In this document: positions 1-42,995 of the stretch, one piece after another
Layout: each line of letters begins with the position of its first letter
How positions within the stretch are numbered: position 1 is the first letter of the stretch
Virus record (IMG/VR): IMGVR_UViG_2874920711_000002
Location: 1-42,995 of that record
Direction: 5' to 3' (one strand)
Source of the DNA: a virus
Taxonomy: Duplodnaviria > Heunggongvirae > Uroviricota > Caudoviricetes
Length of the DNA: 42,995 bases
The notes under the pieces: model-generated
Seen by the model: only the letters and a program-made list of their open reading frames with translations
Databases searched by the model: none
What the model was told of the DNA's origin: nothing
Program-made: the position numbers and the translations under genes

Positions 1-249
1 ATGCGTATTGAAATCTGCATAGCCAAAGAGAAAATGACTAAAATGCCAACCGGTGCTGTGGATGCGTTAAAGGAAGAATTAACCCGACGCATCAGTAAAC
101 GTTATGACGATGTAGAGGTGATCGTAAAAGCCACCAGCAACGATGGCCTTTCTGTTACGCGCACCGCCGATAAAGATTCAGCTAAAACTTTTGTCCAGGA
201 AACTCTGAAAGATACCTGGGAGTCTGCTGACGAGTGGTTTGTTCACTAA
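1..249 (+). CDS. dinI: DinI-family DNA-damage-inducible protein
   Basis: 82-aa ORF starting at base 1; resembles E. coli DinI in length and in the C-terminal [18 protein letters not shown] motif; prophage-borne dinI paralogs are common. Confidence 0.7.
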
Positions 250-636
250 TTAGCACGTAAAATCAGTAACGGCTGGAAATCATTCAATACTCGCACTATC
301 GGAAGTTCACCAGCCAGCCGCAGCACGTTCTTGCATACGACGTGTCTGCGGTCTCAACTCCGCCCGCCCCCGCCAATCATGATTGGGCAGTACCAGTACA
401 GCACTAGCAAAGACAGGAAATTAGCAGTCTCAGCAAAACACCGACCAGACGGTGAGAAGACAAAAAGATACGCAAAGATGCCGCGGTTCCAGAAGAATAA
501 AAAACCGCTAATGGACAGCCTCCTTAACACAGTTTTTTATATACATGATTCACTGATACCAGTGGTATTAATAGCTATTATATAGCTTCAGCTCCTTTTT
601 TCATACCTTAAGGAAAAATTGCCCCTCCCCCAAAAA

Positions 637-653
637 GTATCGTTTTTTTACAT
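637..653 (+). promoter_or_regulatory. MxiE-box-like motif upstream of ipaH
   Basis: GTATCGTTTTTTTACAT matches the recalled MxiE box consensus GTATCGTTTTTTTANAG at 16 of 17 positions; lies about 195 bp upstream of the ipaH ATG. Confidence 0.45.
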
Positions 654-848
654 TAAACCGATCCAGTTTAGGATAGTGTAAAGCAGAAGTTCTTCAATAT
701 ATAATATATGGAGTTAATATGCTTACACAAACTATATATCCGCCTCCTCCAGAAGTTCCTGTCTACTGCTGAAGGGAACCAATAACATTGCAAAGCAGAT
801 AAAAAAGAATCCAACACCTCTCAACATAAAGAATACGCCCTGATATTT

Positions 849-2597
849 ATGCTCCCGACAAATAACAATCACAGATTAATTTCAAATTCGTTCTCCACTT
901 ATTCAATCGACACTAGCCGCGCATATGAAAATTATCTAACCCATTGGACTGAATGGAAAAATAACCGCATACAAGAAGAACAACGAGACATCGCTTTTCA
1001 GCGACTAGTATCATGTCTACAAAACCAAGAGACGAACCTGGACTTGTCTGAATTAGGCCTGACAACATTACCTGAAATCCCCCGGGAATTAAATCAATTA
1101 ATATAAGTAAAAATAATTTAAGCTTAATCTCCCCATTGCCTGCGTCCCTTACACAGCTTAATGTCAGCTATAACAGACTTATTGAACTGCCTGCTTTGCC
1201 TCAAGGACTTAAATTATTGAATGCGTCCCACAATCAACTAACCACACTACCCACACTCCCCATATCTTTGAAGGAGCTTCATGTCTCAAATAATCAATTA
1301 TGTTCTCTTCCTGTTTTACCAGAACTACTGGAAACATTAGATGTATCATGTAATGGGCTGGCAGTTTTACCACCTTTACCATTTTCTTTACAAGAGATTA
1401 GCGCAATAGGGAATCTTCTTAGTGAACTCCCCCTCTACCTCACAACATTCACTCCATATGGGCAATCGACAATATGTTAACCGATATTCCATACCTGCCG
1501 GAAAATTTAAGGAACGGTTATTTTGACATAAATCAGATAAGTCATATCCCGGAAAGCATTCTTAATCTGAGGAATGAATGTTCAATAGATATTAGTGATA
1601 ACCCATTGTCATCCCATGCTCTGCAATCCCTGCAAAGATTAACCTCTTCGCCGGACTACCACGGCCCGCAGATTTACTTCTCCATGAGTGACGGACAACA
1701 GAATACACTCCATCGCCCCTGGCTGATGCCGTGACAGCATGGTTCCCGGAAAACAAACAATCTGATGTATCACAGATATGGCATGCTTTTGAACATGAAG
1801 AGCACGCCAACACCTTTTCCGCGTTCCTTGACCGCCTTTCCGATACCGTCTCTGCACGCAATACCTCCGGATTCCGTGAACAGGTCGCTGCATGGCTGGA
1901 AAAACTCAGTGCCTCTGCGGAGCTTCGACAGCAGTCTTTCGCTGTTGCTGCTGATGCCACTGAGAGCTGTGAGGACCGTGTCGCGCTCACATGGAACAAT
2001 CTCCGGAAAACCCTCCTGGTCCATCAGGCATCAGAAGGTCTTTTCGATAATGATACCGGCGCTCTGCTCTCCCTGGGCAGGGAAATGTTCCGCCTCGAAA
2101 TTCTGGAGGACATTGCCCGGGATAAAGTCAGAACTCTCCATTTTGTGGATGAGATAGAAGTCTACCTGGCCTTCCAGACCATGCTCGCAGAGAAACTTCA
2201 GCTCTCCACTGCCGTGAAGGAAATGCGTTTCTATGGCGTGTCGGGAGTGACAGCAAATGACCTCCGCACTGCCGAAGCCATGGTCAGAAGCCGTGAAGAG
2301 AATGAATTTACGGACTGGTTCTCCCTCTGGGGACCATGGCATGCTGTACTGAAGCGTACGGAAGCTGACCGCTGGGCGCAGGCAGAAGAGCAGAAATATG
2401 AGATGCTGGAGAATGAGTACCCTCAGAGGGTGGCTGACCGGCTGAAAGCATCAGGTCTGAGCGGTGATGCGGATGCGGAGAGGGAAGCCGGTGCACAGGT
2501 GATGCGTGAGACTGAACAGCAGATTTACCGTCAGCTGACTGACGAGGTACTGGCCCTGCGATTGCCTGAAAACGGCTCACAACTGCACCATTCATAA
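849..2597 (+). pseudogene. ipaH: IpaH-family type III effector E3 ubiquitin ligase (LRR plus NEL domain), broken into four ORFs by frameshifts
   Basis: Four consecutive ORFs (849-1106, 1136-1480, 1474-1734, 1731-2597) together read as an IpaH: N-terminal MLPTNNN start, LxxLPxLP leucine-rich repeats, and a C-terminal domain near-identical to the recalled IpaH NEL domain (…AWFPENKQSDVSQIWHAFEHEEHANTFSAFLDRLSDT…[13 protein letters not shown]). Confidence 0.8.
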
Positions 2598-2629
2598 TCA
2601 CATCGCATAAACCACAGACCGGACTGACT

Positions 2630-40896: not shown

Positions 40897-41260
40897 GAAA
40901 AAGTTCGAAAACATAACTGTTCTCCATGTTGATAACTTTGATTATACAAACCAGGAACTTCTCCCGGAGGTTGTAAAGGCAATAGATGTTGCCGATATAG
41001 TGATTAGAGGAAAGAGAATTGTCAAAAACAGGCTCGCATGCACTTCAGGAGCAATGACAGAAACAACCTCACAGCAAGATAATTACGAAGGCATTTGTCT
41101 GGAGCCTGATTCATTTGCGGTAAATGTTTATCATTTATTGCATGCAACACAGGTGTTACATACGTCCAGTAATAACGAAACAAAAACACTTGGCAGTGAA
41201 ATTCTGAATTTTGCATGTGAGTATGCAAAAGCCGCTGTTGAAAAAGAATTAGCGCAATAA
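40895..41260 (+). CDS. Hypothetical protein
   Basis: 121-aa ORF with GAGGAAG Shine-Dalgarno; no recognisable motif. Confidence 0.45.
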   Translation: MKKFENITVLHVDNFDYTNQELLPEVVKAIDVADIVIRGKRIVKNRLACTSGAMTETTSQQDNYEGICLEPDSFAVNVYHLLHATQVLHTSSNNETKTLGSEILNFACEYAKAAVEKELAQ

Positions 41261-41455
41261 CAACAAATATGCCCTGAACGTTTATTGCGGTTTTATCGCT
41301 GGGGATTGTTACAACCTTAATCCACAGGAGGCTTTATTATGACTTTTATAAAGAATATGGCATCACACAAGACCGCCAGCCTTATTGCACAATACGGTGA
41401 AAATTACATGCATATTGCCTGCTTATTTCTGCGTAAAGCATACGGGAAATAACAA

Positions 41456-41797
41456 ATGACACATGAACCCATTAATACATATCGTCGCCGTATAGCTGTT
41501 GCGGCACTCCATAGAATAAAACGTAAAACAGGTGGTGATCTGCTTATTGTTGACCTTCTGGATGGGAACATTACGACCATAGAAATAACAGAACAGTTTA
41601 TAAACCAGTTGCTGTTACGCTTTGAAGGTATTACCCGTGGTGAATTGGGCCGAGTGGAGGGTGAAACCGAAATCCGCACTGCATACCAGAATGCTATCGG
41701 GATTAATCAACATACTGAATACCAGGCTGAAACCGGAAAGTTAATTATAGACAACCTTTTACAAGAGGTTATTGATTACGCGAAAGAAAAATATTGA
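41456..41797 (+). CDS. Hypothetical protein with Arg-rich N-terminus, probably truncated by IS600
   Basis: 113 aa, MTHEPINTYRRRIAVAALHRIKRK…; its TGA stop is the first three bases of the IS600 left end. Confidence 0.4.
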   Translation: MTHEPINTYRRRIAVAALHRIKRKTGGDLLIVDLLDGNITTIEITEQFINQLLLRFEGITRGELGRVEGETEIRTAYQNAIGINQHTEYQAETGKLIIDNLLQEVIDYAKEKY

Positions 41798-42121
41798 GGT
41801 AGCCTGAGTTTAACGGACACTCCTTCCTGAAATAGAATGGCATCAGAAGGAGCTAATAATGAGCAGAAAAACCCAACGTTACTCTAAAGAGTTCAAAGCC
41901 GAAGCTGTCAGAACGGTTCTTGAAAATCAACTTTCGATCAGTGAAGGCGCTTCCCGATTATCCCTTCCTGAAGGCACTTTAGGACAATGGGTTACCGCCG
42001 CCAGAAAAGGACTCGGTACTCCTGGTTCCCGCACGGTGGCTGAACTGGAATCTGAAATTCTGCAACTGCGTAAGGCGTTAAATGAAGCTCGCCTTGAGCG
42101 AGATATATTAAAAAAAGCAAC
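41795..42121 (+). mobile_element. IS600, second copy, left part, interrupted by IS30
   Basis: From the left end TGAGGTAGCCTGAGTTTAACGG… through the first ~88 codons of OrfA this copy follows the first copy (26664 onward); it breaks at 42121 where IS30 begins. Confidence 0.8.
41859..42121 (+). pseudogene. IS600 OrfA interrupted by IS30
   Basis: Matches the copy-1 OrfA through …ILKKAT, then continues into IS30 end sequence. Confidence 0.75.
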
Positions 42122-42995
42122 TGTAGATTCAATTGGTCAACGCAACAGTTATGTGAAAACATGGGTTGCGGAGGTTTTTTGAATGAGACGAACATTTACA
42201 GCAGAGGAAAAAGCCTCTGTTTTTGAACTATGGAAGAACGGAACAGGCTTCAGTGAAATAGCGAATATCCTGGGTTCAAAACCCGGAACGATCTTCACTA
42301 TGTTAAGGGATACTGGCGGCATAAAACCCCATGAGCGTAAGCGGGCTGTAGCTCACCTGACACTGTCTGAGCGCGAGGAGATACGAGCTGGTTTGTCAGC
42401 CAAAATGAGCATTCGTGCGATAGCTACTGCGCTGAATCGCAGTCCTTCGACGATCTCACGTGAAGTTCAGCGTAATCGGGGCAGACGCTATTACAAAGCT
42501 GTTGATGCTAATAACCGAGCCAACAGAATGGCGAAAAGGCCAAAACCGTGCTTACTGGATCAAAATTTACCATTGCGAAAGCTTGTTCTGGAAAAGCTGG
42601 AGATGAAATGGTCTCCAGAGCAAATATCAGGATGGTTAAGGCGAACAAAACCACGTCAAAAAACGCTGCGAATATCACCTGAGACAATTTATAAAACGCT
42701 GTACTTTCGTAGCCGTGAAGCGCTACACCACCTGAATATACAGCATCTGCGACGGTCGCATAGCCTTCGCCATGGCAGGCGTCATACCCGCAAAGGCGAA
42801 AGAGGTACGATTAACATAGTGAACGGAACACCAATTCACGAACGTTCCCGAAATATCGATAACAGACGCTCTCTGGGGCATTGGGAGGGCGATTTAGTCT
42901 CAGGTACAAAAAACTCTCATATAGCCACACTTGTAGACCGAAAATCACGTTATACGATCATCCTTAGACTCAGGGCAAAGATTCTGTCTCAGTAA
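42122..42995 (+). mobile_element. IS30, left portion (runs off the window)
   Basis: Starts with the recalled IS30 terminal repeat TGTAGATTCAATTGGTCAACGCAACAGTTATGTG; contains the IS30 transposase ORF. Confidence 0.85.
42183..42995 (+). CDS. IS30 transposase, partial, with apparent C-terminal frameshift
   Basis: MRRTFTAEEKASVFELWKNGTGFSEIANILGSKPGTIFTMLRD… matches the IS30 transposase; 270 aa here against about 383 aa expected; the last residues diverge. Confidence 0.85.
   Translation: MRRTFTAEEKASVFELWKNGTGFSEIANILGSKPGTIFTMLRDTGGIKPHERKRAVAHLTLSEREEIRAGLSAKMSIRAIATALNRSPSTISREVQRNRGRRYYKAVDANNRANRMAKRPKPCLLDQNLPLRKLVLEKLEMKWSPEQISGWLRRTKPRQKTLRISPETIYKTLYFRSREALHHLNIQHLRRSHSLRHGRRHTRKGERGTINIVNGTPIHERSRNIDNRRSLGHWEGDLVSGTKNSHIATLVDRKSRYTIILRLRAKILSQ

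Follow-up and report, generated by a model that had tools for sequence, protein, structure and literature searches.

Pervasive one-base deletions in G and C runs of an ipaH-carrying lambda-like prophage point to consensus errors of a long-read assembly

Is a prophage in which gene after gene is broken by a single missing base a decaying element or a faulty sequence? This question is raised by a virus record of 42,995 nucleotides (IMG/VR IMGVR_UViG_2874920711_000002, positions 1 to 42,995; hereafter the window), which represents a lambda-like, ipaH-carrying prophage with insertion sequence (IS) elements. A preliminary description of the window had reported widespread single-base frameshifts in at least 25 genes and had judged pseudogenisation no likelier a cause than systematic error in sequencing or assembly. 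In our analysis 58 one-base deletions were counted (1.35 per kb), affecting about 27 genes, among them every gene named in that description. Their spectrum, a repair test and a comparison with same-lineage assemblies favour error overwhelmingly. Judged from these sequence comparisons, the frameshifts are very probably (about 97%) consensus errors of a long-read-only assembly rather than real pseudogenes.

Nature and distribution of the deletions

An exact-protein look-up placed the window at positions 200661-243655 of GenBank CP026824.1 (assembly GCA_002949875.1, 4,971,516 bp). In BLAST searches it was about 99% identical to prophages of the enteroinvasive-type Escherichia coli FDAARGOS_943 and FDAARGOS_944, and its early region matched a second FDAARGOS_944 prophage as well as one prophage of CFSAN029787. 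Gaps were listed from the BLAST alignments of the window with these close relatives, and for each homopolymer run in the references the aligned run length in the window was recorded. Gaps occurred at about 1.4 per kb and nearly all measured one base, whereas two of the reference prophages, aligned with each other over 11 kb as a control, differed by a single gap.

Every clean indel was the loss of one base from a C or G run, and insertions were absent. The frequency of loss rose with run length: 3 of about 600 G/C runs of length three were shortened, followed by 17 of 108 C4 runs (15.7%) and 8 of 51 G4 runs (15.7%), 18 of 32 runs of length five (56%) and 5 of 6 runs of length six (83%). None of the 450 A/T runs of 4-8 bases was altered, no run of any kind had gained a base, and all 48 changes in runs of at least four bases were minus one. 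Taken together, 48 of 197 G/C runs of at least four bases were shortened compared with 0 of 450 A/T runs (Fisher p = 1.9e-27). Among the reference prophages themselves, at similar divergence, no contraction was found at G/C runs of 4-5 bases; one change occurred at a 6-base G/C run and one at a 7-base A/T run. The lesions of the window are deletions only, they are restricted to G/C runs, their rate increases with run length, and C and G are affected symmetrically on the two strands. The earlier statement that several lesions lay at short homopolymers was therefore correct as to the runs and understated their share, as essentially all lesions are G/C-run contractions and none is an insertion.

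The positions given in the preliminary description were largely borne out. For the protease lesion placed near 19370, the reference reads CCCC on the plus strand at 19373-19376 and the window CCC, which corresponds to GGGG versus GGG in coding orientation. The endolysin lesion near 26150 lies at 26156-26158, where a same-lineage contig carries GGGG and the window GGG (CCCC versus CCC in the coding sense), and the holin lesion near 28585 lies at 28582-28585. The IS600 lesion expected near 27835 is present at 27830-27833; it is a change of GGGG to GGG directly before AAT and not one of AAA to AA. This deletion lets the orfB reading frame continue past the end of the element, and GGGG is found at the equivalent position in every other IS600 copy aligned across the site (six copies).

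The deletions are spread over all kinds of sequence. At least 13 of the 58 sites lie between genes, among them the two arms of each of two hairpins, and coding and non-coding DNA as well as three IS families (IS30, IS600 and ISSfl7) are affected. Moreover, C4 runs that follow a G (27%) or precede a T (29%) were shortened about three times as often as C4 runs in other contexts. Both hairpins have lost a base in each arm, and the two arms present the same context read from opposite strands. These observations suggest that the error at G/C runs depends on sequence context.

Several candidate classes of lesion were discarded. Four deletions (17814, 18137, 26156 and 3845) had seemed to lie outside runs and to form a class of their own. 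The first three are plain run contractions when compared with the same-lineage contig; at these three positions the more distant references carry a substitution. Indel clusters at 3025-3032, 3874-3884, 4240-4255, 35899-35941, 37600-37724 and 41081-41095 lie in mosaic, diverged sequence and were left out of the count as alignment noise. Phase-variable contingency loci were rejected as well, as the tracts are just 3-6 nt long and the 58 sites extend over all sequence classes and show contractions only. The same holds for programmed ribosomal frameshifting as it occurs in orfAB of the IS3 family, in ISSfl7 and in lambda G-T. The reference copies of IS600 and ISSfl7 carry annotations of a programmed frameshift of their own and are still one G longer at 27830 and 38418, and each phage gene has homologues that consist of one unbroken open reading frame (ORF).

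This spectrum bears directly on the possibility that the frameshifts are real and that prophage and IS copies are pseudogenes decaying in the course of reductive evolution. Shigella genomes hold many real pseudogenes and defective prophages, and the prophage in the window does have genuine lesions, namely a nonsense mutation in dnaB, insertions of IS600 and ISSfl7, and in-frame deletions in V and lom. It resembles genuine defective lambdoid prophages of Shigella in carrying ipaH, in its IS insertions and in the shared dnaB nonsense mutation. However, neutral decay would leave a mixed spectrum with insertions, with indels at A/T runs and away from any run, with nonsense codons and with amino acid changes, whereas the window shows 58 deletions in G/C runs only, no insertion, and no amino acid change in about 5,800 repaired residues. 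IS30, which is strictly conserved (at least 99% identical across 4,670 E. coli records), has two deletions in 870 bp of the window. Unlike genuine Shigella pseudogenes, the homopolymer deletions do not recur in independent isolates, all 34 comparable sites being free of them in independent same-lineage assemblies, and they are not accompanied by other signs of decay. Real decay is accordingly an exceedingly unlikely explanation.

Repaired genes and same-lineage assemblies

To repair the genes, one base was inserted per deletion and the sequence was translated. This resulted in full-length ORFs free of internal stops for J, H, the protease/capsid fusion, terL, K, I, M and Z, and likewise for the FII-like gene, G, the holin, the dnaC-like gene, V, lom, ipaHd and the lysozyme. 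Fifteen repaired products were then searched for exact matches in a collection of about 15 billion proteins, and each was found, identical in every residue, as an intact protein in independent assemblies, of which most bear the name Shigella dysenteriae. Over about 5,800 repaired amino acids there were no substitutions against 27 repaired frameshifts. The broken 213-aa fragment of the terminase large subunit as it stands in the window was found on no contig other than CP026824.1. Repair of the protease/capsid gene with the FDAARGOS_943 base at 18521 gave a product that was not in the protein collection, and a G at 18522 led to the exact match. Judged by their consecutive accessions (EFP7226143 to EFP7226160), several of the exact matches come from one assembly.

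A look-up of the intact portal protein led to a same-lineage contig of 33 kb, ABSSWT010000033.1 (assembly GCA_040052035.1), which also encodes the lineage-specific V protein of 227 aa. Alignment of positions 9467-31532 of the window with this contig revealed 11 substitutions and 34 gaps over 20.8 kb, and each of the 34 gaps reflects one base missing from a G/C run of the window. Contractions affected 21 of 93 G/C 4-mers, 9 of 19 5-mers and 2 of 3 6-mers, and 0 of 228 A/T runs of at least four bases was altered. None of these 34 deletions is present in ABSSWT010000033.1. A second large assembly, PSSP01000001.1, gave the identical list of deletions. The comparison with a reference of the same lineage that the preliminary description had proposed has thus in effect been made, and the two sequences differ almost only by G/C-run deletions.

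Absence from sister isolates would also be accounted for if the deletions were real and confined to this strain, for example through minus-one slippage during storage and passage of a historical stock that was mismatch-repair-defective or otherwise prone to slippage. In mismatch-repair-defective E. coli, homopolymer runs are the main hot spots of indels, and the rate increases with run length. Nevertheless, at per-run rates of 16-80% the whole genome would hold thousands of frameshifts, and a genome with half of its G/C 5-mers shortened would be inviable. Plus-one events and changes in A/T runs also belong to mutator spectra, whereas 0 of 450 A/T runs changed here, and just 11 substitutions accompany the 34 indels over 20.8 kb. 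Besides, ruvA is affected in the sole 7.4 kb of core genome that was examined. We therefore give hardly any credence to a mutator origin.

With long-read consensus error as the preferred explanation, ipaHd, the genes for tail, head, terminase and lysis and the IS transposases are almost certainly intact in the true sequence. The affected features and the results of repair are compiled in Table 1.

Table 1. Features of the window with their one-base deletions, given as run length in the reference and in the window, and the products obtained after repair. The deletions are putative artefacts; strand is given for genes and elements.
Feature	Coordinates	Strand	Deletions (putatively artefactual)	After repair and remarks
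Intergenic, upstream of ipaHd	618..622		C5 to C4	
ipaHd	849..2597	+	1079 (C6 to C5), 1429 (C6 to C5), 1716 (C5 to C4)	583 aa after 3 repairs; exact match to S. dysenteriae IpaHd
Intergenic, downstream of ipaHd	2649..2653		C5 to C4	
Tail fibre assembly gene (DUF4376)	2776..3398	-	3028 (GGGG to GGG)	
Tail fibre gene (N-terminal domain)	3349..4805	-	3845, beside C4 run	
lom	4827..5383	-	4943 (C6 to C5)	185 aa; exact on 70 contigs of S. dysenteriae
Tail tip protein J	5451..8927	-	6834, 8545 (C5 to C4), 8905 (C4 to C3)	1159 aa after 3 repairs; exact match to S. dysenteriae J; on 8 contigs
Tail assembly protein I	8988..9528	-	9269, 9304 (each C5 to C4)	
Tail protein K (C40 peptidase)	9525..10267	-	9974 (C6 to C5)	
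Minor tail protein M	10970..11298	-	11017 (C5 to C4)	
Tape measure protein H	11298..14335	-	11495, 13585, 13685 (C5 to C4); 13618 (C4 to C3)	1013 aa after 4 repairs; exact match to S. dysenteriae protein; on 9 contigs
Tail assembly chaperone G	14645..15029	-	14702 (C4 to C3), 14733 (C5 to C4)	
Intergenic between G and V	15052..15055		C4 to C3	
Major tail protein V	15087..15769	-	15552 (C4 to C3)	227 aa; exact on 83 contigs
Minor tail protein Z	16178..16761	-	16547 (G4 to G3)	Exact on 88 contigs
Gifsy-2/FII-like head-tail protein	16773..17047	-	16856 (C4 to C3)	
Intergenic hairpin	17377..17394		17383, 17388 (one base per arm)	Reference CAGCCCC-GTTCA-GGGGCTG
ClpP-like prohead protease/major capsid fusion	17448..19502	-	Six: 17814-17817 (C5 to C4), 18137-18139 (C4 to C3), 18167 (C6 to C5), 18485 (C5 to C4), 18522 (G4 to G3), 19373 (C4 to C3)	686 aa; exact match to S. 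dysenteriae protein; on 9 contigs
Terminase large subunit (terL)	21161..23262	-	22634 (G5 to G4)	700 aa; exact on 83 contigs
Intergenic and 58-aa hypothetical gene	24092..24127		24092 (C5 to C4), intergenic; 24125 (C3 to C2), in gene	
Intergenic	25103..25106		C4 to C3	
Spacer, lysozyme to Rz-like lysis gene	25805..25808		C4 to C3	
Lysozyme (endolysin)	25922..26454	-	26156-26158 (plus strand G4 to G3; coding strand CCCC to CCC)	177 aa; exact on 174 contigs
IS600	26664..27926	+	27830 (GGGG to GGG), near 3' end of orfB	Real insertion of a full element between lysozyme and holin regions
Holin region	28198..28794	-	28198 (G3 to G2), intergenic; 28320 (G4 to G3), in YdfR/DUF1327 remnant; 28582 (C4 to C3), at end of holin gene; 28791 (C4 to C3), just upstream of holin start	Holin gene 28575-28789
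Intergenic hairpin	29915..29935		29921, 29929 (one base per arm)	Reference CAGCCCC-TCCGGAGA-GGGGCTG
Non-coding or remnant sequence	30037..30086		30037, 30083 (each C4 to C3)	
Phage tRNA (CAT anticodon)	30252..30327	-		Single, intact
85-aa hypothetical gene	31663..31919	-	31892 (G4 to G3)	
Phage dnaB-type helicase	31916..33303	-	32213 (G3 to G2); 32302, 32337, 32639 (C4 to C3)	Retains TGA at 32722-32724
DnaC-like ATP-binding protein	33300..34177	-	33364 (C5 to C4)	292 aa; exact on 113 contigs
Small hypothetical gene	35261..35265	-	35265 (G5 to G4)	
ISSfl7 (IS5-family)	38198..39119	-	38418 (G5 to G4), in transposase	Real insertion
IS600 fragment (41795-42121) and IS30 inserted in it	41795..42995	+	42163, 42973 (each G4 to G3)	

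Some features of the window stand apart from the frameshifts. The phage tRNA is annotated as tRNA-Ile in related genomes; it sits inside a stretch of 1,338 bp that is 100% identical to the same-lineage contig. ISSfl7 sits where a small hypothetical gene ends. The IS30 copy, cut by the end of the window, interrupts an IS600 copy after 327 bp, and the same composite is found in other E. coli genomes.

Chromosomal flank and probable source of the errors

In the left flank of the window (8.5 kb of CP026824.1) the housekeeping genes aspS, ruvC and yebC looked intact, and errors limited to repeats were considered for this reason. This idea was dismissed, as the flank is poor in G/C runs (11 of length four and 3 of length five in 7.4 kb) and the rate per run is equal to that of the window, with 2 of the 3 5-mers shortened, including one near codon 13 of ruvA. 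The prophage looks worse than its flank because its structural genes are G+C-rich and full of G/C runs. The same flank (stretch 6605-7801) contains an IS110-family element that splits yecD.

The equal rate in unique chromosomal sequence also bears on the question whether the errors come from another technology or step, such as nanopore, 454 or Ion Torrent sequencing or a draft consensus that was left unpolished in repeats only. Prophages and IS elements are repeats, in which polishing often fails, and the platform of CP026824.1 is deduced rather than taken from the record. Apart from the flank, which speaks against errors in repeats only, two multi-megabase assemblies, GCA_040188875.1 and GCA_040188885.1, are instructive here. 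In both, aspS, ruvC, yebC and ruvA are split by one-base deletions in A/T as well as G/C runs, and these assemblies are error-prone long-read assemblies themselves. Their nanopore-type errors are like those of the window in that one-base homopolymer deletions split genes. However, A/T runs of 5-7 nt are shortened in them as well, which is never seen in the window. Since the accession block and two papers in addition point to PacBio, another technology or step is quite improbable as the origin.

The deletion spectrum, the lack of these lesions in independent assemblies of the lineage and the identity of the record are shown by the comparisons. The platform, for which the accession block and published work serve as guides, is inferred, as is the exact step, base-calling or consensus, at which the bases would be lost. 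CP026824.1 falls inside a block attributed to the PacBio genomes of Kim et al. 2018: a passage in one paper cites accessions CP026774 to CP026878 to that study (PMC7819885), and a passage in another calls CP026832 a PacBio sequence of the Kim et al. set (PMC10132075). Yassine et al. 2022 judged 59 historical Shigella PacBio genomes to be unpolished and to contain numerous homopolymer indels (PMC8795385). The Kim et al. set as judged there shares the accession block and the organism group with our record, although the remark is general and includes neither CP026824 nor the G/C specificity and per-run rates measured here.

Similar errors were described by Sacristan-Horcajada et al. 2021, who found that indel errors of PacBio RS II assemblies consist mainly in the loss of a single G or C, which in two of the genomes studied lies in homopolymers of 4-6 nt (PMC8574707). 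Their study, ARAMIS, agrees with our results in the single G/C deletions, in homopolymers of about 4-6 nt, in leaving part of the runs untouched and in the truncated gene predictions. In contrast, 37 indels were found there in a whole E. coli genome, compared with 1.35 per kb and about half of the G/C 5-mers here. This higher density suggests low coverage or weak polishing of CP026824.1.

The most likely source would be PacBio RS II data that were assembled and deposited without short-read polishing. The consensus would under-call short G or C homopolymers by one base, with a probability of loss that climbs steeply with the length of the run and varies with the local context. The lambda-like structural genes, at 55-59% G+C, contain many C4-C6 and G4-G6 runs, which would lead to about 1.3 false frameshifts per kb and to the look of pseudogene strings.

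Some points weigh against this explanation. The case for error is built on comparison between assemblies rather than on direct observation in reads, and sites 3028 and 3845 as well as those beyond 32202 were compared only with relatives that are 1-5% diverged. No paper naming CP026824 or GCA_002949875 was found in papers and supplements, so that the platform attribution depends on the accession block. Moreover, window sites 1429, 1716 and 2649 and two sites in the flank are also shortened in GCA_040188875.1 and GCA_040188885.1. These two assemblies disagree with each other at site 622 and several others, and the shared contractions fit shared error-prone sites, although this falls short of proof.

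An ipaH fragment of 86 aa common to two other assemblies had been considered as a sign of a real mutation. It was rejected, as those assemblies are riddled with homopolymer errors and mutually discordant. The G5 run of ruvA (flank stretch 1261-1275, about 7.3 kb left of the window) is G4 in CP026824.1 and also in GCA_040188875.1 and GCA_040188885.1, and ruvA is thus called with 187 aa instead of 203; this is either a shared error or a real lineage mutation. It is very unlikely that a few of the 58 contractions are genuine strain-specific mutations, for which sites shortened in other assemblies as well, such as the G5 run of ruvA or the C runs of ipaHd, would be candidates. If true, an effector or a repair gene would be truly inactive in this S. 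dysenteriae lineage.

Suspicious positions were also seen in the reference genomes. The ipaHd gene of CFSAN029787 carries a frameshift annotation and has the same C6 to C5 change as the window at 1079. The tape measure gene of FDAARGOS_944 is likewise annotated as frameshifted, and its runs T7 and A5 correspond to T8 and A6 in the window and in FDAARGOS_943; the suspicious positions of FDAARGOS_944 were aligned to 12208, 13089 and 26979 of the window.

Genuine lesions and consequences for the record

Not every lesion of the prophage is an artefact. After repair dnaB keeps the TGA codon listed in Table 1 where relatives have GGC, in a locally diverged stretch. Its N-terminal fragment of 193 aa is present in exact form on 94 contigs, including S. 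dysenteriae 155-74, and in view of this wide occurrence the stop codon is real. The dnaB nonsense mutation is a genuine pseudogene among false ones. Besides, V has an in-frame deletion of 57 bp at about 15246-15258 and lom one of 42 bp at about 5089-5098, each between direct repeats (10-13 bp in the two genes, 10 bp in lom). Since the shortened V and lom proteins occur on 83 and 70 independent contigs, respectively, both deletions are features of the lineage. True lineage mutations such as the dnaB stop codon and the V and lom deletions recur in independent assemblies, whereas the 34 comparable G/C-run deletions do not. With the 58 sites corrected, the genes for head, tail, terminase and lysis are intact, and the real lesions of the prophage comprise only the IS insertions, the dnaB nonsense mutation and the two in-frame deletions.

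The frameshifts represent a known kind of assembly artefact and no biological feature, and their significance is one of data hygiene. Other assemblies can be screened quickly for this artefact by looking for too many frameshifts at G/C 4-6-mers while A/T runs are unaffected, and the context effect (a 5' G, a 3' T and paired hairpin arms) could help to model consensus errors of long reads. Frameshift pseudogene calls in CP026824.1 are unreliable until the sequence has been polished, and the same is probably true for the sister records of the project. Gene counts, core genome multilocus sequence typing (cgMLST) alleles, effector inventories such as that of ipaHd and verdicts of defective prophages that are based on CP026824.1 would be wrong.

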